Position numbers and translations under genes: made by a program. Under the pieces are notes generated by a model, which did not search any database, had not been told where the DNA came from, and was given only the letters and a program-made list of their open reading frames with translations. This document shows positions 4,861 through 62,311 of a DNA stretch of 64,000 bases, piece after piece. The first letter of the stretch is position 1. Every line of letters begins with the position of its first letter. The stretch is from Octopus vulgaris (lineage: Eukaryota). The stretch covers positions 147,498,001-147,562,000 of the forward strand of contig OX597815.1 in assembly GCA_951406725.2 (NCBI GenBank). Direction: 5' to 3'.

Positions 4861-7800
4861 TTGCCTTTGCACAAGTTCAAACGCTGTAGATGTACTACGG
4901 TGCCATTTGTTCATTACCAGTGAACTAAGTTAACACCCCTTATTTTCGAGCCCCATCCAGAGTATTCGGGCTGTTCGAGGCAGTGTTGCTTTCTGAAATT
5001 GCTCCACAATATTGCTGCCCCTATTTGTTCCACGTACTTCTCAAAATTTTTACTCACTGTTCCCAGGGCTCCGATCATCATTAGCACTACTATCACCTTC
5101 TTCGTCGATCACAGCAGCTTAACCTCCCAAGCTAAACTGTCATATCTGTTGAGTTTTCTTTCTTTCTTATCGCATATCTCGTTGTCAACTGACCATGCTA
5201 TATCTGTGATCCAGAATCGTTTGCTTTCTTTCGGAAATTAACACTATGTCTGGCTTCCTATTCATTATCTCATGGTCGCACTGAATCATAATAACCCATA
5301 GGATCATTGCATTATCATTTTCCATGATGCCTTCGGAATGTTCTACCACATGTTTTGTTCTGTCAAGTACATATTTGTTGCAAAGTGTTCAATGGACAAT
5401 CCTTGCTATATTATTATGAAGTCTCCTATTTTTTGTTCTGGGCTAGTGGCGTATATTGGCTGGTAATATGTCATACTTTTTCGCCATCTTGTCCACAAAT
5501 TCTACACTTATCGCTTTCTGCTCTGTTGTCTATTCTGCATTTGATGTAACTTATTTTTAATGCTTGTTTTGGGGTAACACGGATTAGAGCCACTATTTCC
5601 GGTTTTGAATAACTTTCCGTCATTCACAGCCATCTTTTTTCTCTATTTGTCTTATCTCCAGCATCCTTATGAAATTGACCATGCATTCTTTTCTTTACCC
5701 ACCTATTTTCAGTTACATTCGTTTTCACTTTCTTGTACAGTTTTTTATCCTTGCAATCTTTCATCTTACACAAGCCTGATCTTACGTCTAATAAGAGCGG
5801 TTCTGTGGCATTTTTTACATACCATGCTATGTTGTTTTCTTCTGCTTTAATGATGTGTTCGCATCCAATCAGTCCTCTTCCTCCTCTATCTCTTGTTACA
5901 TACAGTCTGTCCGTATCACTTTTTAGCTGGTGTATCCCATGTCTAGTTAGCATCTTCCTTGTCTTTCTGTCTAAGCTGCTTAGTTCGTCTACTTTCCATG
6001 CGATTACCTCTGCTCCATATATAAGGAGTGACACCGCCCAGGTGTTGATAGCTTAAACCTTATTCTGTCCGTTTAATTTCGAATTAAGCATCAGTCCCAG
6101 TCTGCGCAAGTACTCCACTTTAATTTTTTCTATCATTTCCTTCTCCATCAGTTTATCCATATACAATACCCCTAGGTACTTATTGTCTATCTCTTTTATC
6201 TGCTCCACAATCTCCACCAACGGTATCACTAGCCCGTCCATACATTTGATTTTGCCTCGCTAGAAGAAAGAAAACACCACACCTTTTCAGTTCGAACACC
6301 ATTCTGATATCAGCAATGAAATTATACACCGTATCAACGTGGGAACTGACTTGAGATTCATCTTTACTATAATGTTTGAGGCCATCCACAAATAACCAGT
6401 GGTTGACATCTTGTTAGCGTCTCTTGAATACATACTTAGCGTTTACTTTTCTCAGACTAACTGTTAGTGGTATGAAGCACAGTAAAAGATCGATGGGGAC
6501 AGGCAGTCCCCTTGGAAGATGCCTCTCTCCATTTCTATTGTCCTTAAACGTCTTCCATATGCTGTCAGTTCCGTCCTCCAATTCGGCTTATTTTTTCGAA
6601 GCAATCGCCCAAAACCCGATGCAGTACCAAATAGGTTCATATATTCCGTAATTCAAGAATTTGGGAACATATCGTACGCCTTACGATAATCGATCCATGA
6701 TATGGCTAAGTTAGATTTCCTCCTCTTGCAGTCTCTAATAATAGTATTGTCTACCAGAAGTTGATCCTTGTTACTACTGCACTTACACTTAGAACCCTTC
6801 TGCTCATGTGGTAGAACTCCAACTTTCTCTAGATGTCAGCACATTGACTCTGCGACAATTCCAGTCAATAATTTTCACGTAAGTGGCAAGCAGTAAGTGT
6901 CTACCGTATAGACTTTTCCGATGTTTTTCAAGCGCACCATTGTCTTACCCATTGTTAGCCATCCTGGTGTTATTTGGTAGGCATCAAACAAGGTGTTGTG
7001 TTGTGTAGCTATTCGTGCATAACTTTCACAAAATATTTTGATGCAGTAACTTTGAACACCATGTGGTCCCAGGTCTTTCCACTTGTCCATTTTGTTTTTG
7101 CTGATTTCCTTCACTTCCCTAGCTGAAATGATTAGTTCTGTCTGTTTAGGACAGATTACTGTTTGTCTCAGTTCCTGCAACCGTTCAACATCCTTTTTCT
7201 GCTCTTTGTCTTTACTCCAGATGTCACTCCAAAGCCTTTGCCTTTCAATGTCATCTTCTATCAACTTTTGATCAGTACGCTCTCAATTTAGTTTTCTGTG
7301 GAGTCTCTTCTGATCAACTTTCAATAATCTATTCTTCTGATATCTCATCATATCTTTGGTCGTATCTTACCATTCGTTGCAACAAGGTGCGGTTTCAGTT
7401 CCTCCATTACCAATTTCAGGGTCTTTCTCTCAATATAATACTTCCTGTTCAATGCCCTGTATTTTTGTTTGTTTCTATGCCCCTCCTTCTCTTTTCGATT
7501 AACACACAAATGTCCTTTGTGAGCATATCTAACCCCGCCTAGATTCTTCCTTTCCACCGTGGGTCTTTTCTTATGTCACTCCCATTACATTTCATTTTCT
7601 TGACATCAGCACCCACATTTTCTGCTACAAAAATACTTGCTGCCTTGATCAAATTATTTGTGTCTGTGATGTTTTTTTTCTGATATATTTCTGAATTTGA
7701 TTCCCATCTTTCGTTTCCTGGTTCAGTTTCCACCGATCAACCATTTTAAGATTGCAAATAATGTCGCTATCGTTCTCCTGTCGCCTTGTCTTTATTCTGT

Positions 7801-8565
7801 CGTAGATTACCTTTTGCTCAGCTGTCATGTCACCATTAATGTTATTGTCTTCTTCCAGACCATCTATATGTCTCTCGTCAAGCAAGCTATCACTGTTCCC
7901 TTCCTGTGGTTTATTAGAGATTTCAACTCCGTGTTCTGCTATGAGATACTTTTATCATTGGGAACTGTATTTCTATCGTTTCCTCTACCCGTCTTTTGAT
8001 AGATTCGAACTCTACATCTTTGAACAAACTTTTTCCTTATTTCTCTAGCTTGATCAAAGAATATATGTTCCGTGAGTTGAAACAATCCTCTTTCTCTTCC
8101 TGCATCATACATACGTTTTCGGTATCCCCTAATATGAACACCATTTTCGACTACGGGGTTGCTCAGGTAGTAACACACCATGACCACTACATTAACTTGC
8201 TTGTTCCATCTACGCCGTGTGTGCTGGTCCCTTGCTGGATAACGACAGGCTGGAGTCAGACCAGTATCTCTGAGCCTGTCGAGTGCAACACTTTCACCAA
8301 CAAGAGTTTCTGTTTCATTTCCACTGTTATTCGCAATATTTTGTTTTTTCATTGTCACTCATATGAAGTAACGATTAACAGATTGCTCGATTATCATTTT
8401 TTTTATTGTGACACCATCACTAGATGTATCATCAATCAGAGCATAGGGAAATTCCAACTGCTTCCTTTCATTATTACTATTATTATCATCACTGATATTA
8501 TTATTTTCATTATTTTACTATTTGTCATTGTGAATATTTCCTCTGATCTGCCATGAGTTTTAGAC
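4860..8565 (-). mobile_element. Near full-length decayed R4/Dong-clade non-LTR retrotransposon (RT + CCHC + restriction-like endonuclease)
   Basis: Fragments include the N-terminal RRRWNKQVN..CYYLSNP..YRKRM, RT VNHWLFVDGLKHY (YMDD equivalent), KYLGVL, DRLYVTRDRGGRGL, a CRICG zinc knuckle, RKPDIV and IGALGTV. Many stops and frameshifts are present. The 3' end abuts (TAA)n. Confidence 0.9.
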
Positions 8566-8944
8566 AAATCATTATTATTATTGTGATTTTATTTATTTCC
8601 ATTTATTATTAAAAGGTGTTATTAAATGTTGCTTAGGTTCAACTTTTGTCTTTTACTTCAGATAATCATAAATATGTGAAGTTTTAAGTTCGAGCAAGGG
8701 AGACAGCTTGGTGAATAAATTAAATTCAACAGGTCTGTAAATTGATTCCGCAGATAGTGAAGAGATCAGTAATGGACATTCCTGTGCGATAAGGAGACAA
8801 ATGAGGCCTCACATCTTTGGGGTCATCAGAGGTCAAACGTGTTTATTACTACCAGCGGTCAATGAGAGTGCTGATCTTGGTCTTGAAAAGAAACAATTCA
8901 CCTTTTTCTATTTTTAATTGTTGATAGAAAATGAATATGTATAT

Positions 8945-10050
8945 ATTGTTTTTTGTATTTTATACTCGTGTGGCATCGTCCGTTTTTCTGTTCCTGTTTC
9001 GTATACATTCGATCCTTCTTCCAAGAAATCTAATACTCGTAGCTTAGTTTTTCCTTGGGGCTGGCCGGATCGGAGTGATCTCAAGATTAATCAGCCGAAA
9101 TTGCTAGGATGATCCAGTTCTTGACTGAAGATTGAAGGCTTCGAATGTCCCGTCCGTGTTTTTTGTATCGTCTTCTAAATGTTTTATGTTCTTGTCCCAC
9201 TTTGTATTTTTCTACATATAATATATATAGCGACGTCCGTACCCTCGTTGGCCTTATGTAAGTACATATTCCTGTAAATTTGGTACGACTCTACACACTG
9301 TCTCTCTCTCATACATTTCTCTGCCTTCCACACTTTGCACTCTACTTTGATCTGTCCCCTTCTCTCTCTCTCTCTCTCTCTCTCTACTTCTCCTCCTTTT
9401 CTCTTTTCTTACCTCTGATTCTTTGGTCTAATCTTCCCCCCACTCTCTCACATTTCTCTGTCTTTCTCACTTTGCATTCAGAAGCCAATCCTTGGCACGC
9501 ACTCTTTCTTCTCCCCTCTTTAACTCCTTCCTTCTCTCTCTTCTCCCCCCTTTGTTGCCTTCGTCCCTCTTTCTCTCTCACTTTGTTTCCTTTGCCCCCT
9601 TTCTTTTCTCTCTCTTCTCTCACGTGACCGCTGGTCAAATCAGCCTTTTGGCCTCCGACCACTGCCGTGAGAACATCGATGTCTTCGTCTGCCGATAAAG
9701 GCATTTTTTCAAAATACGCCAGCTAAACTTGTTGTACTGTTTATTAGTCGTAAGACACCAGCTGTTTTTGTCCTGTTTTTACCATTATTGTTTTTTGTAT
9801 TTTATATTCGTGTAGCATCGTACGTTTTTCTGTCCCTGTTTCGTATACATTCGATCCATCTTCCAAGAAATCTAATGCTCGTAGCTTAGTTTTTCCTTGG
9901 GGCTGGCCGGATCGGAGCGATCTCAAGATTAATCAGCCGAAATTGCTAGGATGATCCGGTTCTTCGAATGTCCCGTCTGTGTTTTTAGTATCGTCTTCTA
10001 AATGTTTTACGTTCTTGTCCCACTTTGTATTTTTCTACATATAATATATA
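8945..10050. mobile_element. Element with ~270-bp direct repeats (8945-9225, 9787-10050) around a CT-rich spacer
   Basis: Two similar copies of ttttgtattttata-tcgtgt...ttttctacatataata, each ending in (TA)n. A third copy lies at ~58745-58985. Confidence 0.7.
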
Positions 10051-10099
10051 TATATGTATATATATATGTGTGTGTGTGTGTGTATGTGTGTGTGTGTGT

Positions 10100-12960
10100 A
10101 CATATTGGGACAGTCATAGCAATGAGGAGGCATAATTTCTGACTAAAAACCTTCAATATATTGTGTGGCCTATTTGCATTTATCCTTCTCCCATTTTGAA
10201 GAGAATCTTCCAAAGAAGTGCGATGTCATCTTTTTCAAACAAAGGAGGTGGCGTGTGTTCCCACTAGCTTTTATCATGGGGCAGGGCCATATCTTTGCAA
10301 ATTACCCAGTGAATATACTGTGCTGCTCTATCATACCTGTTGAAATATTCTGTAGGTACAAGAAGGCTGCACATGGAAACAACATGATCAATACTTTCAA
10401 TGTGGTCTTTATATACACCGCATATTAGGCTACTGCCGTTCTTTAAAATGGTGACCTGGTAGCTTCTTGTAGTTTGGCATTAATCTTGGGCTGCTATGAT
10501 AAAGCGTTGTGCCTCTGATGTTAAGCCTAAAGACACAAACCATTGACGGTTAAGGGCTTTGTCATCATCAGCATTATTGGCTGTCTTTGGGTATTTGCTG
10601 CTGAGAGGCATGTCTTGTCATTTATCAGTAAGAATATATAAAGTAAGTTTTAGCAAGGGTTTTCATACTATTAACTTTTCCTGCGCTTGTTTTAAGCACG
10701 TATGATTTTGAGATTTGTTGTATTTAGAATTCACTTAAATATTTCTTTGCCTTTTTTGATACTGAGCATTAGGTTTTCTTGTTCTCATGCTTTAAGACAA
10801 GGTCAATCATCCTGTCATCAGAGTTTTTCAGGTAGGTCTGTAGGCGAGTTGTGGCAATCTTCCTTGTCAATTCTAGTTCTAAATGTCCATGTTTGCCTGC
10901 TTTTCTTGGCAGGTAATGTTGTTCTATATCTGTCTTAGTGTGGTGTATTCTATGCATTCTCATCAGCAACTTTCGTAGTTTTCTGTCAAGATTACAGATT
11001 TCAGTAATTGACTAGTTACTTAATAATATTGGAACTATAAATCACCAACAGTTTGGCTAAAGTATTGATCGTTTCGTTCCAGTTTCTTGCGTTCAGCTCT
11101 GACTTGCGTATGGCCCTTACCCTGCGATAGCATTATTTTCTGACCTTTCCCATCATGATTGAGTTTTGATTCCGTCAGCTTGAAATACCCCAAGATATTT
11201 GTAACCCTCTGCTGGTTATAAATTATTTATAACCTTAACGTTAGATGTTTGCACCACTTTCCTTCTGATAAAGTTATCTTTTGCACATTTATCTAGGCCA
11301 AATTCCATCCTGATATCATCACTGCAATTTTTTACAGTTGCTAGTAAGCCCTGTAATTGTTGGTCATTTTTTGCAAACAGCTTTAAATCATTTATATAAA
11401 AGAGATGATTTACATCTTTATCAAAAATTTCATAACCATATTATACACCATCGAGCAATTTCGAAAGCAGCATTAAGGCTAGACAAAGGAGGAGTGATAA
11501 TAGAGAGTCAATTTGAAAATGAAGCATGACATTTTTACATCTCCAGCATTGAAAAATTATTTGTCACTATTCAAATCCGTGTAGTACCCCATGCTGTCAT
11601 ACTTACAGAGAAGAAATTTCGCAGAGTAGGTACTATTTTATAAATCTCCAGTCAGTTCTTAATCCAGCTATGTGGTAGAATATCAACAGCATTTTTTATA
11701 GACTATCCGGGACTATTGGTAAGTTCTAGTGTTTTTTGCGACAATCTTCCAAAATCATCTTATTGATGACTAGCAGATCTTTTCAACCATTGGACCTACG
11801 TTTATATCTTTTTTACTCATTAGGGAAGATGCCACTTTCTATTAAAATGTTATAAGTATATGCAGTCAAGACATATGCCAGGATTTTATACATTATTTTT
11901 AAGCAGGTTATGGGTCTAAAATATTTTAGTTCTTTTGTTTCTTCGTTTTTCGGAAGTAAACATGTAATGCCATTAACTCTCCAAGAGGGAATCATATTGG
12001 GTTACTGCAAAACATTGTTGTAAAGTCTTGTCAGCAATTCCTGACTCTCTAGGAAAACATTCAACCAGAAGTTAGGCATTCTATCCTTGTCTGGAGATTT
12101 CCATTTACTTGTTTTCCTGAGAGCAGATCTTACATCCTCTACATTCATGCCCTTCCAATTTTGCTCTTCTAAGGAGCTTGAATCAATAGATATTATATCA
12201 ATCCACGGGCCTTTTTAAACTTTACCCAAATTTTATTCCCAAACTCCTGCACTTCTTTTGTCGGGACAGACGTTATTGTAACTGACATTTTACCTATCTT
12301 CTTGTAAAATATTTTGGCTTATTCTTAAACATGTTGTCCTCGAAGAACCTAGAGCACTTTTCATACCTATTTCTTTATTACCCACAAGGGGCTAAACACA
12401 GAGAGGACAAACAAGGACAGACAAAGAGATTGAGTCGATTATATCGATCCCAGTGCGTAACTGGTACTTATTTTAATCGACCTCGAAAGGTGGAAAGGCA
12501 AAGTCGACCTCGGCGGAATTTGAACTCAGAAAGTAACGGCAGACGAAATTTCACTCTGCATTTCGCCCGGCGTGCTAACGATTCTGCCAGCTTTAGCAGA
12601 TACCTTTTGTTTGATAATTTCTATAGTGGTAGCGATGTAAAGTATGGATTTCATATACATTTTTTTTTTAATTTTCGGATTTTTGTTGGTTCGATATTCT
12701 CGTCATTCTTAGAGATTTTTAAACATTCCATGTCAGGCTGAAGTAACTGATTTCGTTGTCGGATACGCTCTTGCCAAATATGCTTTTTGTTGGAATGTTG
12801 TCGTTTCCTAATATTTTCAGCACATTGAATTATTGATGTCCTAGCGGATGCATAGAACTTGTGATTGACAACTGTAATATCATCATCAGCTGAAATCATT
12901 AAGTGCAAGGCCAATTACTTTCAGGTTTTTCTAAGAATTTTAAATATTCGGGACCGTGTT
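10100..12960 (-). mobile_element. Second decayed R4/Dong-like LINE, interrupted by a SINE
   Basis: Fragments: GITCLLPKNEETKELKYFRPITCL, HHTKTDIEQHYLPRKAGKHG, YKYLG-like and RINANRPHNI...LLIAMTVP (RLE). It lies next to (ATT)n at 13005-13155. Confidence 0.85.
12365..12597 (-). mobile_element. SINE family B copy nested in the LINE
   Basis: Reverse complement of 2164-2385. Confidence 0.85.
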
Positions 12961-13030
12961 ACGTTCATTCATACGGGTTTTTTTTTTATTTTCAACCATG
13001 AATATCATTATTATTATTATTATAATTGTA

Positions 13031-23763: not shown

Positions 23764-24050
23764 TAAGTAACAATTGATGGATAGGTTTCAATCAATTACA
23801 CTCGTTTGTAACGATTTTTAAATTGATTAATGAGTGTATAAATTGCTGGGAATCATTATAAAAAAACCGTTTTCTTCAGATGAATACATGAATGTTACAA
23901 TCAGCGATATTTAAAACAATTCCAATTTCCATGACTGTAATATTCATGCATTCATCTGTAGAAAATGGCTTTTTTATAATGATATAATCAATTAAACATT
24001 CGTTAGACACAGCTGTAATCAATTGACACCAGTCCATCAGTTGTTACTTA
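23764..24050. mobile_element. Foldback MITE-like palindrome
   Basis: Imperfect inverted repeat along its whole length: taagtaacaattgatgga/tccatcagttgttactta and atcattataaaaaa/ttttttataatgat. Ends are TA. Confidence 0.75.
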
Positions 24051-25177: not shown

Positions 25178-26626
25178 CATATATATATATATATACATAT
25201 TTGAGTGTTTGTGTATGTGCGTGCGTGTGTCTAGCGTGTTAGAAACACCTTCATTTCTAGGAATGACAGCCAAAACGCTCTAATGCTGTAGTCGAAGCAC
25301 GTAGATGTATACATCTATATTGTTTGGTAAAATATTTAAAACCGCTGTCTATATTAATATTCTGCATGCACAATAGTGATTCGCCAAATCATCCATGGAT
25401 TTTTATGAGGAAATCTAATATGCTGACAGAGTACTTAGTCCGGAATCTGCTGCAGTCAAGCCAATCCTTACTGAAGAGGTAACTGGAATTGCCTTAACTG
25501 ACCGGTCACATAGGGTATTCTCGATCGGTATTTTCAGATAATTATAGTCCCTGTCAGTATATATGCATAAAATTATGCGTATTGACTACTGCATTAGCAC
25601 ATTTTAGCTCTTATTTCTGGCAATGTTGGTGTTTCTAACAACCTTGTCCCATTTAGTAACAATTACTGTTTTGCTTTTTGGTAAAGGGTTGGAGAGAAAA
25701 CCAGTAAGGATGAAGAACAAGAGAGGGAGAGAGATAGACAGGGAAGAAATAGTAAGGGAGAAGTGTGCGCATCATAATCCCACCCTTCCCTATTCTTCTC
25801 TCCCCTTCACCGTTCCCTCTCTCTTACTCCTCCACCTCATCCTCCTCCTCGACTCACTCGTCACCGACACGTGATCAGAGGGAAGCCATCTTTCCAACTG
25901 CTACCTTCACCAAGACCAGGCCAGCTTATCCTGTCTTTCATAAGCTGTCACCTGAAGCGTTCAAAATAATTTTTCTATCGTGTTGGCTTAACAGCCGTCA
26001 TCGTTTGTTTTGACTGTTTTATTCTTATTGTTCTGTCTTTTACCGTTTTTATTTTTTTATTGTTTTTAATATATTGTTTTGTTCTTACTATCCTGTTCTT
26101 GTAACCACTTTTACCCTCCGCAAAAAATCCCAAATTTTATTTAATTTGCTGTGCGGGAAAGACTGTTTCAATGAAGTCCCGTCTTATTCTTACTTTCGAA
26201 ACAGGGACGAAACAGGGACAACTGAAGAACGGGGATTTTCCTTGTGCTGTAAGTCTTGTACTCTGTGTTTTTCGTTGTTTGAAAAAAAGGTCCTTTCTAT
26301 GTTTTTGTTTTTATGTTTTCGTTTCTCATTGTGGTCAATTTTTTTTTTATATCCTGTACCCATCTATGTATTTATATATTTATATATGCATATATTTATA
26401 TTATATATATATGTATATATATACATATGTACACAAATTAGTAAATAAATGGCACAACTAAGTACCGATATTTACTGGAAATAGCGAACGTAAAAATACG
26501 ACGCTAATGTGTAGCTTCACCGCGTATATATTAGCAAAAATGCGTGTGTGCAACAAATTAGAGAAAAGAAAACCCGTCTTACCTCCAGGGAGAACATCTG
26601 AAAGATGAAACACCCGGAAAAGGATA

Positions 26627-26705
26627 ATGTGGTACCTGCAGGTTTCAGGTTTTACAAGATATGTCTCTCACCCATATTTTGTTTTACCTTCATCAGCCAA
26701 ACATA
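26627..26705 (-). ncRNA. Type I hammerhead ribozyme motif (unit 1)
   Basis: ggtacctgcaggtttcagg...ccttcatcagcca, with the core intact. The unit-2 copy (~27060-27135) has GAAAC changed to GAATC. Confidence 0.85.
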
Positions 26706-27179
26706 TACCAAGACGAAATCTACGATGTTACCACATTAATACTAACACACTCGACTGAAATGCGGAACGCTAACAGTACGAGAAACGGTGAAGAAGTTTC
26801 AAAATATCAGTAATGCAATACAAAGTATTGCCTTCCAGTAAAAGTAGCCCGTGAGGGAAAAATACACAAATTAGTAAATAAATGGCACAACTAAGTACCG
26901 ATATTTACTGGAAATAGCGAACGTAAAAATACGACGCTAATGTGTAGCTTCACCGCGTATGTATTAGCAAAAATGCGTGTGTGCAACAAATTACAGAAAA
27001 AAAAACCCGTCTTACCTCCAGGGAGAACATCTGAAAGATGAAACACCCGAAAAAGGATAATGTGGTACCTGCAGGATTCAGGTTTTACAAGATATGTCTC
27101 TCACCCATATTTTATTTTACCTTCATCAGCCAAACATATACCAAGACGAAATCTACGATGTATACCACATTAATTTAAT

Positions 27180-27365
27180 TAAACTTGGCATTTAGCTTCT
27201 GTTAAGTCAAGCCCCTTAACCAAAAACTTGTCTACTGCAGCCCCTTGGTCAATGCAGTTTTGGCCTCTTGGTCGATGCAGTTTTGGCAGGTATCAACAAA
27301 AGATTTACAGCCCTCCTGGACAATGAGGAATGCCAACTGGCTATTATAACACCAAGTTCACCAGA
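27180..27365 (+). pseudogene. hAT (Ac/Tol2-like) transposase C-terminal fragment
   Basis: KLVYCSPLVNAVL, then after a short duplication LVDAVLAGINKRFTALLDNEECQLA, then a frameshifted PKF-like end. This resembles the Tol2-type YCSPLVDAL..GI..RF..PKF segment (recalled, not aligned). Confidence 0.65.
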
Positions 27366-27460
27366 ACCAAAGTTTTTGGTTAAGGGACTTGACTTAACAG
27401 AAGCTAAATGCCAAGTTTAATTAAATTAATGTGGTAACATCGTAGATTTCGTCTTGGTAT

Positions 27461-27540
27461 ATGCTTGGCTGATGAAGGTAAAACAAAATATGGGTGAGAG
27501 ACATATCTTGTAAAACCTGAAACCTGCAGGTACCACATTA
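27461..27540 (+). ncRNA. Type I hammerhead ribozyme motif
   Basis: atgcttgg CTGATGA(27469-27475) aggt...acct GAAAC(27519-27523) ctgcag GTA(27530-27532) ccacat. Stem III is ACC-TGCA-GGT. Stem II is extended by acaa/ttgt and atatg/catat. Confidence 0.88.
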
Positions 27541-27839
27541 TCCTTTTCCGGGTGTTTCATCTTTCAGATGTTCTCCCTGGAGGTAAGACGGTTTTTTTTT
27601 CTGTAATTTGTTGCACACACGCATTTTTGCTAATACATACGCGGTGAAGCTACACATTAGCGTCGTATTTTTACGTTCGCTATTTCCAGTAAATATCGGT
27701 ACTTAGTTGTGCCATTTATTTACTAATTTGTGTATTTTTCCCTCACGGGCTACTTTTTACTGGAAGGCAATACTTTGTATTGCATTACTGATATATACAT
27801 ATGTATATATATATATGTGTTATATAAATATATGCATAT

Positions 27840-28257: not shown

Positions 28258-29803
28258 GTACCGAATATTTTTAGAAATTACACTACCACTGGCCTAGCAT
28301 GTATAAAAAGTCAATAGACAACATATTCTCAATATAAAATAATGTACATTTAAACACAGGAAGATCTACGTTTAACAGGTAATTTCACGCGCTAGAAGAA
28401 GCAGTCAAAACGACTGAAACCACATTTAAGAGCAGGAACTTTCACCTGGCAAATTATATTTATGTTAGAAAAATTTGAATCCTAGGTATAACCGTAAAAA
28501 ATAACAATGTAAAGGTTTTTATTTTTCATTCCCTTCGAAATTGCTTTTAAATGTAGTTTCGGTCGTTTTGACTGCATCTTCTCGCGTCCGAAATTATTCG
28601 GGTTTAATAACTATCTATAAATGAAATAATATATGAAAAGAATACATCATTATAAAATCTTAGTGCGTCTTCTTTTTGCTTCAGACTAAATAAATTCAGA
28701 TTTATGAATTAGATAATGGCTATTGACAGAAATACAATCATCACCTTCCATAAAGTAGGTGACAGTAATAGATCTATAGCAAAAAAGCTTAAAATTAACC
28801 GAACAAGAGACTGGAAAACTGCCAAGAAATTTCAGGGGACTGGTTCTACCGCTGACTGACCTGAGCGTAGCTGAAGAAGAAGTGTGCGGACCACTCAACT
28901 TATCAAAAGCACTAGAGAAAAGATACAGTGAAATCCTCATTGCTCCGTCAGAAAACTGGCTGCCACAGCATAGAATAGCTGAACATCGATGTATCGAGTG
29001 ATTGAGGAAGATCTCCAGAGTCAACCCTACATGATGATTTTTCGACATCAGCTCACACAAGTTAACATGGCCATGAGACTTGAGAGAAGTCGTCTTATCG
29101 TGCGTGAGATTGCTGAAGGCATGCTGGCCAGACAGGTGTTTAGTGATGAAAACTAATTAGACATCGAACAGACAGTATACATCCAGAATGACAGACTTTG
29201 GAGTTTTTCTGACTCCGTCGATGATAGATTCGTAATTCGACGTCAAAATCTACAATCGGGTAAGTATTGGGGTTGGGTGGGGCTCATTTTTCTATCCTCG
29301 GGTGTTAAAATTAACACTCAGCGATGTATTAGCGACAGTCTGGAAGTTGAAGTCCTTCCACGATCGAATAAGCATTTTCAAGGCGTACGTTGGAGCCTCT
29401 AACATAACTCGACACCATCCCACAGATTTTTAACAGACACAGCACTGAATACAGAAAAACATAATCTGTCTTTCATACGTAAAGATGCTCCGATCTCAAC
29501 CTGTTGAATTTTTGTGTTTGGCCCATTTTGAAAACTAGGGTCTTAAGCACACTTCATGCTTCGCTGGACACTCTGAAGGCAGTAGTGCGGCAGGGCAGGG
29601 GTTAGATTCCGCAAGAAGAGCTGCGCACCAAAACGTAATGCTGTTATTCTAATCACAGGTGGTAATATAAATATAAATGTGGCAGTGTCATAATTGTGTT
29701 TCCTTTACCATTGCATTTGAACGCTCGGACCCGAAATATAACAATATTTTGCTTAGGCAAACTTGAAAGGAATCGGGTACCTTAATTTTGGGATACCCTA
29801 TAT
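28253..29803 (+). mobile_element. maT/DD37D-like Tc1-mariner transposon, decayed
   Basis: MAIDRNTIITFHKVGDSNRSIAKKLKI (HTH, from ~28717), VFSDEN*LDIEQTVYIQNDRLW, an LQQDSAPSH-like motif and PDLNLLNFCVW. Imperfect TA-flanked ends (tagggg-tacc / gggataccct) lie in (TA)n. Confidence 0.8.
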
Positions 29804-29889: not shown

Positions 29890-30230
29890 TAAAAGTAATT
29901 ATAAGGGCAAAAAGAAAAAAAATTCCTTTGCCAATATACTGAAAAATAGACGCTAAAACGTCGAACCACATAAAATATTTTCACTGTCGAAACGAGGAAA
30001 GCAAGGTAACAGAGATTCATAAAAATATGGTTATCCACAGAAATTCATAACACTATTTAGTTATTCTCGGGGATAACTATACTTTTATGAATTTCTGTTA
30101 GCTTACGTTCCTCGTTTCGGCATGTGCTGTTATAGGTGAAAATATTTTATGTGGTTAGACGTTTTAGCTTCTATTTTCCAGCATATTGCCAAAGAGTATC
30201 ATTTTTTCGTCTTACCCTTTATTTATAATT
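29890..30230. repeat. Imperfect foldback element between (TA)n tracts
   Basis: gctaaaacgtcgaaccacataaaatattttcac pairs with gtgaaaatattttatgtggttagacgttttagc, and cgaaacgaggaa pairs with ttcctcgtttcg. Confidence 0.75.
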
Positions 30231-31288: not shown

Positions 31289-31669
31289 CAGTACTGGGAG
31301 AATAAGAACGGAACGAAGCGAATCGAATCGACACGAGGGCGCTGTCAAACAATAGTGTAATAAATAAAATATTTGCATACATACAAACATATATGTACGT
31401 ACCTACATCTACATGTATATATATATGCATATATAAATATATATACGTGAGTACAGGACACCACAATTAGACGTAGAACTCAACGAGAAACGAAAACGGA
31501 TAAACCATTTTTTTACAACAGAAAAACAGATTACAGGACATACTACACAAGGAAAAATCCCCTTCATCAGCTGTCACTTGTTCGACCCTGGCGTGTTTCG
31601 AAGGCAAGACAGAACACCACCCGTCAAATTAGTCCTTCCTGCGAGAGAATTAAAATAAAATTACCTCGC

Positions 31670-32200
31670 AGTCAATTAAAAGTTGGTATATTATATCCCA
31701 TATTATTATTATATTAAAAACATACAGTTAGAAAACAATAGGAAAACCTTCAAATTTCTATTTGAAATATTTTAAAGTTCTGATTTTTGAATGAATGCAA
31801 GACAAACCTAAATCTAGACGATTATTTAGTAGATTTTTATTTTTCCTATACTTTACAATCTCGTAGGTCTCCATAGAACAGAGTTGACAGCCTACTCTAT
31901 TATTTCTGTAAGGTATTGCCCTTCTAACTATTTCCCATTTTAGGTTATATTTAATATTTTTAGTTTTGAGTTCCCAAATTTTGCTAGATAGTGTAGTGCA
32001 ACCTGCCTTATGATCTAATAGAAAAAATTAAAATCTACTAAATAATCGTCTAGAGTTAGGTCCGTCTTTCATTCATTCAAAAATCAGAACTTTAAAATAT
32101 TTCAAATAGAAATTTGAAGGTTTTCCTATTGTTTTCTAATTGTATCTTTCTAATATAATAATAAATAGAAAATATAGTATACCAACTTTTAATTGACTTT
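31670..32200 (-). mobile_element. Penelope-like element remnant: GIY-YIG endonuclease C-terminus between ~180-bp inverted repeats
   Basis: The - strand at ~31850-32010 encodes TTLSSKIWELKTKNIKYNLKWEIVRRAIPYRNNRVGCQLCSMETYEI (PLE-type T.LS..IW.LK...W.I...CxLC). Inverted arms are 31670-31849 and 32019-32198. Confidence 0.8.
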
Positions 32201-32786
32201 ATAGTCAACTAAATTACTTAAATCATAGAATTGCTCATTTTCCCAATTCCATTCTAAATTTAACATGTAATACTATTCCCCCAGTTATAATCTGACTTTC
32301 ACTATAAATTTGACCATTTGCTATTGAATTTAATTGACCTCTAGATAGTGACCTAGATTCTTTCTCTCCATACAAAAATAAAAGTTAAAATAAAAATAAA
32401 AATAAAAATATATAGCCTTCTATTCTAGTGTTAATCTTGATTTTCTTACTGTATCTTTCTCTGTCGATAACCTAAAACCCTCTTATTTCTTTCCTTATAT
32501 CTCCCTTTCTCCTAACTCCTACTATAAATTCTGATGGCTTTCATTTGAAAGTAAGGTTTGGTCAACCTTACGGTCTCTTAAGAATTTAATGTTCCTCCCA
32601 CACTAACCTAATTTTTCTGTCACCATATTAATAGACTGACCCTTCTTTCTAGTGTCAATCTGTCTTTGTCCTTTTACATCCCCCAATTTTTTTCCCCTTC
32701 TGTTCTTTTCTCCAGCTAATCTGCTTCCTCAACCTACTATACTACCATTCCTATCACTAAAGAATTTTTTTCTTGCAACAGTTAGA

Positions 32787-33282
32787 TGTGAACTTAATCT
32801 TGGTCTGACTGGCATCTTTCTTCATGTTTCCTGAAATTCATATCCACAACTTTCTCGGTATTTTTACCTTCTCTGGGATGTTACTAATTGATTTGAGAAC
32901 ATTACATTGTTGGAAAACATATATGAACTTAATCTTGGTTTGCCTGACATCCTATTTCAAGTTCCTGGAACTCATATCTACAACTTTATGGGTATATTTG
33001 CACTCTCTAAGATGTTACTAATTGATTTAAGAACTTTACATTATTGGAAAACCTATATGAAATTAGCTGAAGATTACTTGACATATTATATTTGCTGTAA
33101 TATTTGCAGCCTTAATAAATTGTTATAGTATAAAACAATTGTACTAAATTTCCGGATCCATTCTTGTTGTTTATTTTTTTGTTATAATCACCCCACATAA
33201 CTTTATGGGTAATACCATAAAAAATTCTGGTGCATCTAAATTAAGTACCATATACATTTGAATCTAAATTGTTTTGCTGAAC

Positions 33283-33285
<3 letters not shown>
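32787..33285 (+). mobile_element. Diverged family H1 copy with 2 x ~134-bp upstream repeats and a degenerate hammerhead
   Basis: 33060-33280 is homologous to the reverse complement of 1004-1243: ttag CTGAAGA(33067-33073)...AAAAC aatt GTA ctaaa (G12>A). It ends in (TA)n. Confidence 0.75.
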
Positions 33286-38049: not shown

Positions 38050-38697
38050 ATGAAGAATGTCCGTAGCCACTTCAACATAGCAGTTTCTTTCGAACGGATT
38101 TAACTGCGATTTCCTAACCCTAACAGGATATCTATAGCTGGTTAACGATGCACAGCTGCATCCGATAAAATTGCAAGCGACGAGACCCGTAGACCAGCCT
38201 GGTTGCTGCTTATTTCTACCTCTCTTCAGTACTGGACACCTCTTCTGCTAAAGATAATAGTAGCACACTACTGCTCATAATATATATATAATTCAAGCGA
38301 AACACAGTCGCTGATCTTGCAACAAGCAAAAAAAAACAACAGTTCTAAGGTCTGTCTTAGATACCAACGCAATAGTTTTAACAGCAAGTAATATTCGTAG
38401 ACACTTCAGCATGGGTGTTCTGATCGAATGGACTTGACTGCGATTTTTTTTACACCAAGAAGGCTACTCCTCTAGCAGGTTAATGATGCAAAGCTGCATC
38501 CGAAAGATTGCAAGCAGGGGAACGAATCCGTACCAAATTGTAACGACGGGACTAGCAGAAGAACATGGTTTCAGGCTATTTCTGCCTCTCTTCAGAACTG
38601 GACACTTCGTCTGCTAGAGATGACTATGAACATTAGTTATTAGTACAACTACTGCGTTGATATCTAAGAAAGATTTTAGAACTAGCTCTTTTGCTTG

Positions 38698-38755: not shown

Positions 38756-39259
38756 ATATGTATAGACGAGAAGAAAATGGAGGAAATATAACAAACATAA
38801 GTTTTTGGGCGATAGTATTCTATTATTTAATTAGTAAATACAGGTGACACCTTAACGTACTAATTACATAATGGCTCACTAGCGGAAAAGGCACACTTCT
38901 GTTTGTTATTTGTCTTCCATTTTCTTTACGTCCATATACATTAAACTACGGTTACCCGCTAAATTACCTGCTGCCGTATACATTTTACCAAGGAATATAC
39001 CTATTGAGGTAATTACTGGAAGTGCTTCGCGATATATCTATTCCTTAGAGGCTTTAATCACCTCTAACTTATACCTGTACATAAATATATTTATATATGC
39101 GCATGCATGAATATATGTATACGATGAAAGCAATACTGAATTAACATTCCGTATATCATGTCGAACGCAGATATACAGTTGAAATCTTTAAAACTTACGC
39201 ATTCGTTGCAAGAAAGTATCACGTAGAGACAAACAGTGTTAAAAATACAAAAATGTGTC

Positions 39260-43411: not shown

Positions 43412-44190
43412 AGGCGGCGAGCTAGCAGAAACGTTAGCGCGTCGGGCGAAATGCTTGGCGGTATTTCGTCTGCCGTTACGTTCAAATTCCGTCGAGGTCG
43501 ACTTTGCTTTTCATCATTTCGTGGTCGATTAAATAAGTACCAGTTACGCACTGGGGTCGATATAATCGACTTAATCCGTTTTTCTGTCCTTGTTTGTCGT
43601 GTCTGTGTTTAGCCCCTTGTGGGTAGTAAAGAAATAGAAATAGGTATTTCGTCTGCCGCTACGTTCTGAGTTCAAATTCCGCCGAGGTCGACTTTGCTTT
43701 TCATTTTTTCGGGGTCGATTAAATAAGTACCAGTTACGCACTGGGGTCGATATAATCGACTGAATCCGTTTGTCTGTCCTTGTTTGTCTTCTATGTGTTT
43801 AGCCCCTTGTGGGTAGTAAAGAAATAGAAATAGGCAATTCGTCTGCCGCTACGTTCTGAGTTCAAATTCTGCCGAGATTGACTTTGCCTTTCATCCTTTC
43901 GGGGTCGATTAAATAAGTACCAGTTACACATTGGGGTCGATATAATCGACTTAATCCATTTGTCTGTCCTTGTTTGTCCTCTATGTGTTTAGCACCTTGT
44001 GGGTAGTAAAGAAATAGGTATTTCGTCTGCCGCTACGTTCGGAGTTCAAATTCCGCCGAGGTCGACTTTGCCTTTCATCCGTTCGGCATCGATGAATAAA
44101 GTACCAGTTACGCACTGGGGTCGATGTGATCCACTTACCCTTTGTCTTCCCTTGTTTGTTCCCTCAATGTTTAGCCCGTTGTGGGCAATA
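43412..44190 (+). mobile_element. Head-to-tail tetramer of SINE family B
   Basis: One full head followed by units restarting at gtatttcgtctgccg at 43461, 43644, 43834 and 44018 (period 183-190 bp). Confidence 0.9.
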
Positions 44191-50817: not shown

Positions 50818-51674
50818 TTCTCAGTATATACATTGACATTTCGCTTAATCAGTCACAAATATTCATGGTAAAAGTATATATGTTGAGAGTCGGATTTAGC
50901 CAAAATCATCTAGAAACCTACGCTTAATAAGCGAAACTGGTTTAGTGTAGTGACCCTAGAGACAATCAGAGGACTGTTATCTGCCCTGTCAGTGTCAGTG
51001 TATATATATTGCACGCTACTTACAACATTAAGAGTTTTTAACACTTATTTCTTGCAATATAGGTATGCCGGCTGCCTTAGTCACAATTAGTAAAGATAAA
51101 AGTTTTCCTTTATGGTGCTACAATGCGCCAAGCCGTTGTATCTATTATATACGTGTGTGTGTTTATTCCATGTTATGTTATATATATATGTATGTATGCC
51201 TGCGAGTGTGTGTGTGTGTGTGTGTGTGTTCATTCCATGTATTATATTTTATTATATTTTATATATATAATGATATGTAAATGTAACATCCAAATATCCA
51301 GGTGTAGGACGTTTGTAAGCATCGGGCAGTCCGTAGAAATTATAAAAAACAGCTTTTTTAAAAACTACATTTATATTTTCTTTACCTTGTGATCTCTGTG
51401 TATCTTCCTCTCTACAAATGAGAATATGCAAGTAGGATACAACAGACGCAGAGTAACATTACCTGCATGTGCGCCAATACGCTGTACGTATAATTTTACT
51501 GTGATAAACCATCATTTTGCCTAGAACTATGTAATACTATTGCTCCCTGTTTCTGCTTTTCTTCTAGCAAACTCACCTTACTACCCTTCCTATTTCTTTC
51601 TCTTCCTCTTCTACTCCTGACGAATTTACCTCTAAAATTCTACGTTTCTTTCTATTGATTCTGTTTATATATAT

Positions 51675-52177
51675 ATATTATATTAAATTAGAGATAAAAC
51701 CACTATTAGGCAAATCATACAATGAAAAACTTAAGCCAATACATAATATTAATTAATTTATATTATTTAAATATATATCAAAATTATTAAAAAAGATAAT
51801 TAATATAATACTACGATCGTTTCATGGCTGTTCAATTCTTAAAAATTTCGAGTTACAGTCATTCTTCAGGTGGTTTAAATATTTGACTTGGCAAGGTTTA
51901 AACAATGAACCAAAATTTTGAATCAAAAAAGTTTTTTGAACAGCCATGAAACGACCGTAGTGTTATATTAATTATCTTTTTTAATAATTTTGATATATAT
52001 TTAAATAAAATAAATTAATTAATCTTATGTATTGGCTTAAGATTTTCATTGTATGATGGGCCTAATAGTGGTTTTATCTCTAATTTTATATAATATAATA
52101 TTTTACTATAAAATTGGATTCAATCCTAAATCTGATTTTTCCGTGTAAGTTTGGATTTATTCCCTAATATTTTATTA

Positions 52178-58996: not shown

Positions 58997-59070
<74 letters not shown>

Positions 59071-59209
59071 GAGAGAGAGTAACCACTATGTGGTCGACTC
59101 TAGTGCTAAAAATAGATCCGCTATGGTATAGCCACTAAAAATTGTTTCCAAGGAGAAATAACACAACATTTAACGTAGGGCAAGTGAAAAATAACGAAAA
59201 AAATAGATT

Positions 59210-59287
59210 AACTCTGGACAATTGTTTCATTATTAATGTAATATGCAATTTTACTTACATAACATCTATAATTCATCAGCAGAAGTT
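59210..59287 (-). ncRNA. Type I hammerhead ribozyme motif (inverted copy)
   Basis: Reverse complement of 59893-59970, with TCATCAG at 59273-59279. Confidence 0.9.
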
Positions 59288-59892
59288 TGTCTAGAATACA
59301 ATTTATTAAATCACACATTAAATTTCGACGCAGCGTCAAAACACACGTGCGGTTCAATCGATTGTATTAGCAGCTATGATTCAAATTCCCCCGCCAAAAG
59401 TGTGCCAAGACTTCGGGAAACGAATACTGCATAAAATATTTACTGCAGCATAATAAATTTTACAAATGAGGGTTAATCAATTTTTTTCGTTATTTTTCAC
59501 TTGCCCTACGTTAAATGTTGTGTTATTTCTCCTTGGAAACAATTTTTAGTGGCTATACCATAGCGGATCTATTTTTAGCACTAGAGTCGACCACATAGTG
59601 GTTACTCTCTCATATTTATGTATAAATTTGTATTTTATCCCTGGTTTTATGTGCTAAGCCACTTGGTGTTAAATTGATGGTATTATTAAATTAATATCAA
59701 ATTTTTCACCCTCATTTGTAAAATTTATTATACTGCAGTAAATATTTTATACAGTATTCGTTTCCCGAAGTCTTGGCACACTTTTGGCGGGGAATTTGAA
59801 TCATAGCTGCTAATACAATCGATTGAACCGCACGTGTATTTTGACGCTGCGTCGAAATTTAATGTGTGATTTAATAAATTGTATTCTAGACA

Positions 59893-59970
59893 AACTTCTG
59901 CTGATGAATTATAGATGTTATGTAAGTAAAATTGCATATTACATTAATAATGAAACAATTGTCCAGAGTT
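59893..59970 (+). ncRNA. Type I hammerhead ribozyme motif, GUC cleavage triplet
   Basis: aacttctg CTGATGA(59901-59907) attat...ataat GAAAC(59952-59956) aatt GTC(59961-59963) cagagtt. All three stems pair. Confidence 0.9.
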
Positions 59971-60759
59971 AATTTATTTTTTTCGTTATTTTTCACTTGC
60001 CCTACGTTAAATGTTGTGTTATTTCTCCTTGGAAACAATTTTTAGTGGCTATACCATAGCGGATCTATTTTTAGCACTAGAGTCGACCACATAGTGGTTA
60101 CTCTCTCATATTTATGTATAAATTTGTATTTTATCCTTGGTTTTATGTGCGAAGCCACTTGGTGTTAAATTGATGCTATTTTAACTATCTCCCTGCAACT
60201 AAATGACCACAAAATAGTAGGAGCGCAGATCACGAAGGAGCAGTAAGGGAGCGTGCAGATACAACAGTTTCGTTAGAGAATACAGAGCATATAATATTGC
60301 TTCACGTGCAGTACAGATACTAGAACAAGAAGAAGTTATAAGGCTGCCACGGCAACGAGAAGGCCAAGATGAAACGGTGAGAGGGGAACGAGAATGGAGA
60401 GACAGAGAAGGGTAAAGAGAAGGAGAAAGAGAAATAAAAGAGAGAGGGAGAGAGAGAGAGAGAGAATGGGAAAGACAGCGAGATAATGAATGAATAATGC
60501 TGTTGCAGAGGTAGTGAGAAAAACAGAAGAGACTAGTTAGGGAACTTAAATTAGGCGACTGGGAGAGAAAGATGAAGAAAAATATAACAAATGAGATTGA
60601 GGTATACAACTATATTATGAAAATCAATGTGATGAAGAAAGAGAGAGAAGACAGAGAAATGAGATGCACACCTCTCCGTAGATGTGATAATGAAAATAAC
60701 ACAACAGAAACATATGAAGAACCTGAAGTCATCGATAGCCCAGTTACTCTAATGGTCTT

Positions 60760-61350
60760 CTCTGCTATCTTGGCCTGGCTTCGCAGATGAAGGTTAAGAA
60801 GGCTGTTATCCACGTCGTCGGCACGCTCGTTCGTGGCTGATAAGGCCGATGTGGGATCGACATATCCGATTTCAATGATGACAGGGCCCAATGATGCAGC
60901 TGTATTATTTTTTCCCCACTGGCTGTTGCCTTCAGGAGAGGCACTGCAAGAGATCTCAAAGGAGGAAAGAGCATCGCTGATGTGTATGGTGCCAAGCAGC
61001 ACGGTCAGCTGTTAGAGTGGGCCACTCACGATAATCAATGTTACAAACGCTAAGGGAATGCTTCAGGCAGTCCTTGTAACGCTTCTTTGATGCCCCCACC
61101 CTGTTGCGGTGGCCAGTGTTGAACGCACCGTATATGATGATCTTCGGTAAGCGATGATCTTTTTTCCTGTCAACGTATCCTGCCCAACGTAGTCGTGCCC
61201 CAAGTAAAATGGTTTTCAGGTTGGTGAACTCTCCTCGCTTGAGAACCTCAGTGTTGGTGATGTTGTCGCTCCAGTAGATGTTGAGGTTAGTGCGAAAGAG
61301 CCTGAAATGACAGCAGTTGAGGACCCAGGACTCAGAGCCATATAGGTCAC
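60760..61350 (-). mobile_element. RTE/BovB-like LINE 3' fragment
   Basis: RLRWAGYVDRKKDHRLPKIIIYG..NTGHRNRVGASKKRYKDCLKHSL and a terminal RICRSHIGLISHERAC zinc-finger-like motif. Confidence 0.85.
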
Positions 61351-61384
61351 AGCAGCAAAAACAACAATCATAATAATAATAGAC

Positions 61385-61567
61385 CTCTCTACCATAGGTA
61401 CAAGACCTGAAATTTTGAGGGAGAGGAAATGTCGACCTCAGTGTTTTATTTATACTTAATTTATCAACCCCGAAAGGATGAAAATCAAAGTCGACGGCGG
61501 CGGAATTTGAACTAAGAACGTAGCGACGGGCGAAAATCCGCTAAGGATTCTGCCAGCTTGCCGTCTT
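61385..61567 (-). mobile_element. SINE family B variant
   Basis: ccccgaaaggatgaaa...cggaatttgaact...attctgccagcttgccg. Confidence 0.8.
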
Positions 61568-61595
61568 ATTGGCGACGACGATGATGATGAGGATG

Positions 61596-61662
<67 letters not shown>

Positions 61663-61688
61663 TAATAATAATAATAATGATAATAATA

Positions 61689-61743
<55 letters not shown>

Positions 61744-61744
<1 letters not shown>

Positions 61745-62311
61745 TGTAACTGAAGGAGAAAATGTAACCATTCTGTGGGACTTTCCAGTACATACAGACC
61801 GAACCATCAAGGCCAATAAACCAGATATTGTTGTGAAAGACCAAAACAATAAAGTTTGCTTATTGATCGACATGAGCATCCCCTGTGATCATAATATCTC
61901 AGCGAAAGAGTTTGACAAGCTCAGAAAATATAAAGACCTACTCATTGAAATTGAGAAAATGTGGCATCTCAAGGCGGTTACAATACCAGTGATCGTAGGA
62001 GCACTAGGAATGATCAAGAAGGGAACCGAAAATTATATGAGAATGATCCCTGGCTTACCATCCCTGCAAGAAGTGCAAAAGATTGTCTTAACTGGTACAT
62101 CACACGTATTGAGAAGAGCATTGTCGATGTGAGAACTGTTGCTGCTCATGTATTTTAATTTTAATTTAACTTAAAAAAGAAAAAAAAAATGTACGAACTA
62201 CTGAGTTTGGTTTAATGGCCAAGCCAATATACACTATGAGTTTCTTTGCCCTAGGAGTCGGGAAGACACTTGGCAAGAAATGGAAGAAAATTTGAAAGAA
62301 GAAAAAAAAAA
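61744..62311 (+). mobile_element. 5'-truncated young R4/Dong-like insertion with an open RLE domain, 3' UTR and A-rich tail
   Basis: Stop-free VTILWDFPVHTDRTIKANKPDIVVKD..CLLIDMSIP..KLRKYKDL..PVIVGALG..TSHVLRRALSM* (stop at 62132). (TAA)n lies on both sides. Confidence 0.92.

Follow-up and report, generated by a model that had tools for sequence, protein, structure and literature searches.

The question raised by this locus is whether a 433-bp repeat bearing hammerhead motifs on both strands is a retrozyme, able to release a monomeric RNA by ribozyme cleavage, and how its copies came to lie partly in tandem and partly inverted. With good confidence we read the locus as one insertion of a non-coding, highly repeated hammerhead repeat, likely a non-LTR retrozyme copied by the enzymes of Penelope-like elements (PLEs) into TA-rich DNA. 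Judged from its letters, the repeat likely functions as a non-LTR retrozyme does, and it has the anatomy of a PLE insertion with none of the PLE genes; such a retrozyme is best read as a non-autonomous PLE derivative.

The direct copies start at 26430 and 26863, which gives the period of 433 that had been predicted. Positions 26430-26740 match 26863-27174 at 97.8% over 312 nt and recur inverted at 27425-27734 at 98.4%. The tandem repeat is real, but its arm holds 1.72 units and not the two originally described, because one copy is partial (only 26430-26740 match). The inverted third copy is likewise present; it ends at 27794 rather than 27792 and is part of a 425-bp inverted repeat (26804-27229 and 27370-27794) with a 140-bp loop between the arms. 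On the hammerhead strand, the left arm opens with about 195 bp of sequence foreign to the unit, followed by a full unit and then a partial one of 311 bp; the right arm has 55 bp of that foreign sequence and then 370 bp of the unit. The arms lie head to head with both 3' ends facing outward, and they differ at 8 of about 425 positions. The features of the insertion are as follows.

26417..26429, no strand: target-site duplication, left copy, in TA-rich DNA; 9 bp are certain (26421-26429), at most 15 bp with microhomology
26430..26740, minus strand: copy 1, a partial unit of 311 bp; it stops at the main 3' end, which lies 203 nt beyond the predicted cut
26627..26704, minus strand: hammerhead 1, intact type I, from descriptor scan and constrained fold; CUGAUGA 26696-26690, stem II 26689-26647, GAAA 26646-26643, stem III 26643-26634, H17 26633
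26741..27174, minus strand: copy 2, one full unit
26804..26862, minus strand: tail segment of 59 bp, which the insertion has on its right side (27735-27794) and lacks on its left; sign of a second 3' end
27060..27137, minus strand: hammerhead 2, damaged, with A15.1>U at 27076 (reads GAATC); H17 27066
27175..27229, no strand: non-unit segment of 55 bp, left copy; inverted match at 27370-27424 with 1 mismatch
27230..27369, no strand: unpaired palindrome loop of 140 bp, with a 23-bp tandem duplication at 27240-27287
27370..27794, plus strand: right arm, inverted and truncated at its 5' end, made up of the 55-bp segment, copy 3 and the tail; it faces the left arm head to head
27461..27538, plus strand: hammerhead 3, intact type I; CUGAUGA 27469-27475, stem II 27476-27518, GAAA 27519-27522, stem III 27522-27531, H17 27532
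27795..27803, no strand: target-site duplication, right copy, followed by a TA/CA microsatellite

The three type I hammerhead cores (CTGATGA) lie at 26696 and 27129 on the minus strand and at 27469 on the plus strand. Each is accompanied by a 43-nt stem II, GAAA, the palindrome ACCTGCAGGT and a GUA cut triplet. Stem I has 3+3 bp and a 2-nt bulge in each copy, and stem II is made up of 4 bp, an AAA/AAA internal loop and a 9-bp distal helix with one mismatch. The 10-nt stem III palindrome ACCUGCAGGU stands next to the GUA triplet in every copy, and position 10.1-11.1 is A-U instead of the usual G-C. The A15.1>U change at 27076 is private to copy 2. The original prediction of one hammerhead per copy, the first intact and the second altered from GAAAC to GAATC, together with an intact plus-strand hammerhead with a palindromic stem III, was borne out, and what it observed at the locus is confirmed. 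In the window, by which we mean the whole 64-kb stretch of DNA that was analyzed, a strict descriptor gave 7 matches, every one with a palindromic stem III of at least 8 nt; 100 dinucleotide shuffles gave a mean of 0.07 matches (maximum 1), none of them palindromic. The match at 1297 on the minus strand reuses the downstream half of that at 1237 through a 60-bp duplication. The Rfam hammerhead models had no match over the window at the gathering threshold, and a search of 26400-27830 up to E = 10 returned 9 weak matches, none to a hammerhead. Hammerheads of this kind, with stem II arms of 39-62 nt, may for that reason escape Rfam and short-spacer descriptors. A metagenome pattern scan gave no matches.

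Beyond what had been predicted, the locus has a target duplication, a one-sided tail, a separate central repeat and an inversion that extends over 425 bp. The boundaries of the insert, set by comparison with the sequence inside the unit, are exact (left 26430, right 27794), and ATACATATG adjoins them at both ends, reaching 15 bp with microhomology. The 15-mer at 26417-26431 recurs on the plus strand only at 27791, a unique pair within the window, in which the 9-mer of the duplication occurs 5 times on the plus and 3 times on the minus strand. The 59-bp tail is at the right end and missing at the left. A partial tandem with an inverted copy beside it, a tail at one end only and a target duplication together describe PLE insertions in parts of PMC8557442 and PMC3846280, and a section of PMC11167929 traces the tail to two internal reverse transcriptase (RT) start sites and reports AT-rich targets; the two 3' ends at our locus match such a pair of start sites. 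The inverted copy is, by analogy with these elements, a signature of PLE-type insertion.

No PLE gene accompanies this anatomy. The 433-bp unit is non-coding with 37.9% GC, the longest ORF of the insert has 69 codons, and none of the 7 insert ORFs searched has a Pfam match; a search of 18 ORFs (these 7 and 11 elsewhere in the window, out of many more listed) gave one sub-threshold match, outside the insert. Neither an RT nor a GIY-YIG gene was found at the locus by the ORF and Pfam search of the insert, no partner PLE came to light among the ORFs searched, and neither a protein family nor an RNA family was found for the loop at 27230-27369. The centre was also considered as the end of a PLE ORF, and this was rejected: it has no Pfam match, its variants by eye are not concentrated at third codon positions, and a contig of another run likewise has the 23-bp duplication, which shifts the frame.

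The sequence of events that we propose would begin with transcription, on the hammerhead strand, of tandem copies elsewhere. Through the 10-nt palindrome of stem III two hammerheads would pair, so that cleavage would occur mostly in dimers and could yield monomers of 433 or 434 nt, possibly circularized. A PLE endonuclease would nick TA-rich DNA, and RT would begin inside the unit, either 203 or 262 nt beyond the cut. In this case RT would have copied a dimer that had not been cut and that had about 195 nt of another repeat on its upstream side; the end of the cDNA may then have folded back on itself and been extended, which would have made the inverted arm from copy 2, and repair would have left the target duplication of 9-15 bp. 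The insertion appears to be young because the arms differ by about 2%. Among the copies there are 11 variable sites, of which 2 are private to copy 1, 6 to copy 2 and 2 to copy 3, and 1 is shared; in the region common to all three copies, four sites are private to copy 2. The shared site is a rare allele at 26994 (about 1% of depth) in copies 2 and 3. Since these two copies have in common both this allele and the upstream 55 bp, copy 3 would be a fold-back copy of copy 2, a derivation that we favor, if thinly, on a single shared derived site. The template was presumably a dimer transcript and not a circle read twice, since its two units would already have differed. Copy 3 is intact, and therefore copy 2 probably lost A15.1 after insertion and the template hammerhead would have been intact but uncut.

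The wider family was followed in public sequencing runs by comparing contigs from 4 of the 24 listed runs with 26741-27369 at 85% likeness. X15 and X10 are guessed to be RNA (depth 6-270), and X1 and X4 are the other two runs. In the two DNA runs the summed depth, which is not the same as copy number, was 7,400-390,000 for the unit vs 30-1,400 for the centre and 270-620 for the 55-bp segment at 27175-27229. The unit is highly repeated, so that the retrozyme prediction does not fail on a single-copy sequence. The 55-bp segment is part of a separate, much less repeated sequence, and the centre is a repeat of its own: a contig that spans 27172-27326 then enters sequence unlike the unit. The head-to-tail joint, from the start of the unit back to its end, was present in all four runs. 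GAAAC at 27076 accounted for 4342/4342, 10937/10937, 22/22 and 6.6/6.6 of the depth. H17 varies between A and C in the family (GUA or GUC) and A15.1 is kept, a pattern of variation that looks compatible with function. At 26862 and 26873 the contigs have loose ends of (TA)n, and therefore other copies end where copy 1 does. Among loose ends at 27069-27112 from different runs there are stem II variants that would swap G-C for A-U and repair an A-C mismatch; these sit on different contigs and hence do not amount to demonstrated covariation.

As to transcripts, contigs of 313 and 308 nt in the two runs guessed to be RNA cross the head-to-tail joint at low depth, and one of them bridges the cut site; in such contigs a circle, a multimer and DNA look alike. 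No contig spans two hammerheads. The centre is without cover in these two runs, which carries no evidential weight. The part most abundant in DNA is missing from X15, which hints weakly at a real transcript, and the X10 depth profile resembles that of DNA.

The 433-nt circle is strongly self-paired, as its predicted folding shows (z = -3.8 and -4.5 in two shuffle runs; the lowest z of 20 window controls was -2.0). The antisense circle likewise folds well (z -3.8), and the hammerhead region alone folds no better than its shuffles (z -0.2 to +0.4). The active fold of a single hammerhead costs 5.8-7.5 kcal/mol relative to the ground state, and 6.7 kcal/mol in the circle. In a precursor of copy 2 and copy 1, the free fold reaches -146.7 kcal/mol, against -138.9 kcal/mol for the double hammerhead and -135.5 kcal/mol for the single copy-1 hammerhead, which places the double hammerhead 7.8 kcal/mol above the ground state. 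The self-duplex of the stem III palindrome, at -17.7 kcal/mol, fits the dimer mode described in part of PMC4209133. The double hammerhead, in which the intact core of copy 1 faces the cut site of copy 2, could be the only route to a monomer at the locus. The mutation at 27076 would not strictly exclude monomer release, because it is the copy-1 core that would face the copy-2 site. In read-through RNA, copies 2 and 3 would pair with each other into a long hairpin; for this reason, and because copy 2 is broken, the locus would be a poor source of monomers. From cut to cut the monomer (27065-26633) has 433 nt at the locus; that of the family probably has 434 nt because an extra A at 26839 is present in most of the contig depth. 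The original prediction that a 433-nt monomer would be released is not supported at the locus itself, where copy 2 is without A15.1 and the active folds lie 6-11 kcal/mol above the ground state, so that the locus is not a clean source of monomers; it finds support at the level of the family, which is repeated, joined head to tail, nearly always keeps GAAAC and has a predicted self-paired circle.

Two other hammerhead families, unrelated to the first and alike in design, were found in the window.

59048-60184: second, unrelated family; 496-bp unit, 44-nt stem II, 8-nt palindrome, GUC triplet
1005-1479 and 32786-33283: third family; head-to-head hammerheads at 1237 (minus strand) and 1359 (plus strand), 60-nt stem II

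The insertion at 59048-60184 has cores at 59279 on the minus and 59901 on the plus strand, both in intact hammerheads, an inverted arm, a tandem arm of 1.4 units, two 3' ends and a left end in (TA)n, and its circle has z -3.8. The tandem arm comprises one cut-to-cut monomer plus about 220 nt, is joined to the inverted arm by 5-nt microhomology, and has its 5' end 1-6 nt 3' of the predicted cut. Since the chance is about 1 in 80 per end and one of three intact families is positive, the overall probability of such a coincidence is about 4%. The position of this 5' end may hint at cleavage in vivo, and we treat it as a lead only. The depth of the 433-bp family falls from the bin 27035-27055 to the bin 27056-27076, which holds the cut site, by 6.1-fold in X1, 2.5-fold in X4 and 3.7-fold in X10, and rises across the same bins in X15. 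This step could reflect copies that run from the cut to the main 3' end, again only a lead; subfamilies diverging in the ribozyme would also give it, and the private changes of copy 2 lower the depth near 27056-27076. At 1005-1479 the third family is bounded on either side by (TA)n and contains a 60-bp internal duplication, and an older copy near 33067, with 76% identity, has lost G12 and is preceded by a 134-bp tandem.

Several other explanations have to be weighed against a retrozyme insertion. The unit might be the pseudo-LTR of an autonomous PLE and the locus a truncated insertion of it, without an independent retrozyme life or circular RNA, which we regard as rather unlikely. The anatomy equals that of truncated PLE insertions (in parts of PMC8557442 and PMC3846280), pairs of opposite-strand hammerheads 100-700 bp apart are described for truncated PLEs in a passage of PMC4209133, stem III and the TA targeting resemble those of the Hydra-clade PLE hammerheads (PMC8557442 File S2, in part), and hammerhead cleavage was dispensable for PLE insertion in vitro according to a section of PMC11167929. 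However, depth is alike on both sides of the head-to-tail joint (7,800-13,000) and about 300 in the upstream centre, none of the 20 loose ends listed out of 118 runs from the unit boundary into an element body, and nine short motifs were absent, by exact match and with wrapped lines, from the portion of the PLE consensus supplement of PMC8557442 that was compared. That the repeat is a satellite or SINE-like sequence spread by other means, with the hammerheads as dead or slow passengers, is quite improbable. The active folds are not ground states, and most of the family depth falls in a 190-bp part without the ribozyme; yet three unrelated families have all retained the core, the three stems and the stem III palindrome, H17 varies solely among permitted letters in the differences listed, and the insertion at 59048-60184 begins at the predicted cut.

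The centre and the inverted arm allow two further readings. The arms may have met in a perfect palindrome centered on TTAA, with 27174-27425 a later MITE of 252 bp with 56-bp terminal inverted repeats. TTAA flanks it at 27170-27173 and 27426-27429, the inverted 56 bp have 1 mismatch, and the centre is a separate repeat whose contig departs from the stretch at 27172; the depth on the supposed terminal repeat (270-620), however, is no higher than that on the inner part, and no strand-change joint occurs among the contig joints listed. The ends of piggyBac elements typically start with CC, and the ends here do not. On balance we doubt this version of the centre. The inverted arm as a fold-back artefact of long-read assembly is hardly credible: although the contig comparison stopped at 27369, short of the inversion junction, there are 8 differences between the arms, no duplication extends into the flanks outside the TA tracts, the insert lies between direct copies of its target site, and in other families arms of 68-97% identity are arranged in the same way.

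A single retrozyme insertion made by PLE enzymes may then be compared with known systems. With metazoan non-LTR retrozymes (parts of PMC7229834 and bioRxiv 10.64898/2026.07.22.740005) the locus shares a non-coding tandem unit of a few hundred bases with low GC, a type I hammerhead, a long target duplication, a highly self-paired circle and many copies. Its unit has a full-core type I hammerhead (in copies 1 and 3, and in copy 2 with the family letter restored), is joined head to tail with GC under 45% and no ORF, and is bracketed by a target duplication longer than 4 bp (9-15 bp), and its monomer circle is highly self-paired. Two intact hammerheads in tandem, as in retrozymes, are not found at the locus owing to A15.1>U in copy 2, and likely exist elsewhere in the family. 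Nor are the helix sizes canonical (stem II of 43 nt, no Rfam match): known metazoan retrozymes have a 4-bp stem II with a short loop, whereas the 433-bp unit has 43 nt in stem II and a 10-nt stem III palindrome. The predicted ground state of its circle hides the ribozyme, as in some mussel circles. Unlike known non-LTR retrozymes, the insertion has inverted arms. Part of bioRxiv 10.64898/2026.07.22.740005 makes the case that animal retrozymes derive from PLEs; in that study 8 of 9 predicted retrozyme dimers failed to cleave and the 35 genomes are those of vertebrates, insects and one coral.

With EN+ PLEs (parts of PMC8557442, PMC3846280 and PMC11167929) the locus shares a tandem with an inverted 5'-truncated copy, a tail, a target duplication, captured sequence and an AT-rich target; an ORF for RT and GIY-YIG is absent from the insert, the tail has 59 bp vs 30-40 bp in these elements, and the unit closes head to tail. 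The Hydra-clade PLE hammerheads in PMC8557442 File S2, as far as its entries extend, also have by eye a near-palindromic stem III of about 4 bp, (TA)n targets and a ribozyme near the 3' end, and a Hydra family of Octopus bimaculoides is among them. Their stem II and loop take about 10-26 nt vs 39-62 nt in the window, and no sequence match to the entries was found. In the sections of PMC8557442 concerned, a long stem II of about 50 nt is given only for two spike-moss PLE-X families, and the core halves of eight Naiads, two of them from cephalopods, lie 35-50 nt apart. The part of PMC13282606 on O. vulgaris has 31 recently active Penelope-like families and no mention of ribozymes. The literature searched, which did not extend to Repbase or to most subscription journals, held no description of cephalopod retrozymes and hardly any of hammerheads with a long stem II or extended helix II.

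The retrozyme-PLE link has so far rested on co-occurrence and sequence trees, and the role of the hammerhead in endonuclease-bearing PLEs is called unclear in part of PMC8557442. The single locus is an ordinary, partly decayed mobile element, and its value is in a genome-wide test: insertions of this kind are mechanical signatures that can be counted across the genome, and if their 5' ends pile up at the cut, ribozyme-processed RNA would be a real template. A broader proposal is that the octopus has several unrelated, abundant retrozyme families with a stem II of 39-62 nt, whose insertions record 5' cut ends, two fixed RT start sites, inverted arms made by fold-back and (TA)n as the target. 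We put this forward tentatively, as possible but not yet probable. If true, hammerhead cleavage in vivo would feed PLE-type retrotransposition, and the "half-core" motifs of Naiad PLEs might be complete long-armed ribozymes. The long stem II suggests that ribozyme counts in such genomes are underestimates.

Some minor observations were made elsewhere in the window. Degenerate hammerhead-like motifs with a long stem II and a near-palindromic stem III occur at 51669-52101, 30820 and 49004, the first of them in a 433-bp palindrome with TA-rich ends. Fold-back repeats at 23764-24050, 29903-30219, 31670-32198 and 38758-38941 have 68-92% arm identity and are possibly older insertions of the same type. 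The dispersed repeats at 26188-26428, 31391-31609 and 38056-38621 have a CTGANGA box beside TA tracts and failed the descriptor; they are possibly minimal hammerheads of other PLE ends. A 190-bp repeat forms 3.8 tandem copies at 43480-44185 and is dispersed at 2204-2392 and 12363-12592. We take it to be an octopus SINE-like element, and the microsatellite load is presumably also typical of Octopus; a literature search on the motif of this repeat found nothing. Decayed LINE-like and mariner-like remnants were recognized by eye at 5600-11000, 28686-29400 and 60956-62132. The LINE fragment at 61758-62129 has many protein homologues (at least 120 matches, 4 of those listed bearing names), the best named among the matches listed being from Octopus sinensis (73%), followed by Penaeus chinensis (66%).
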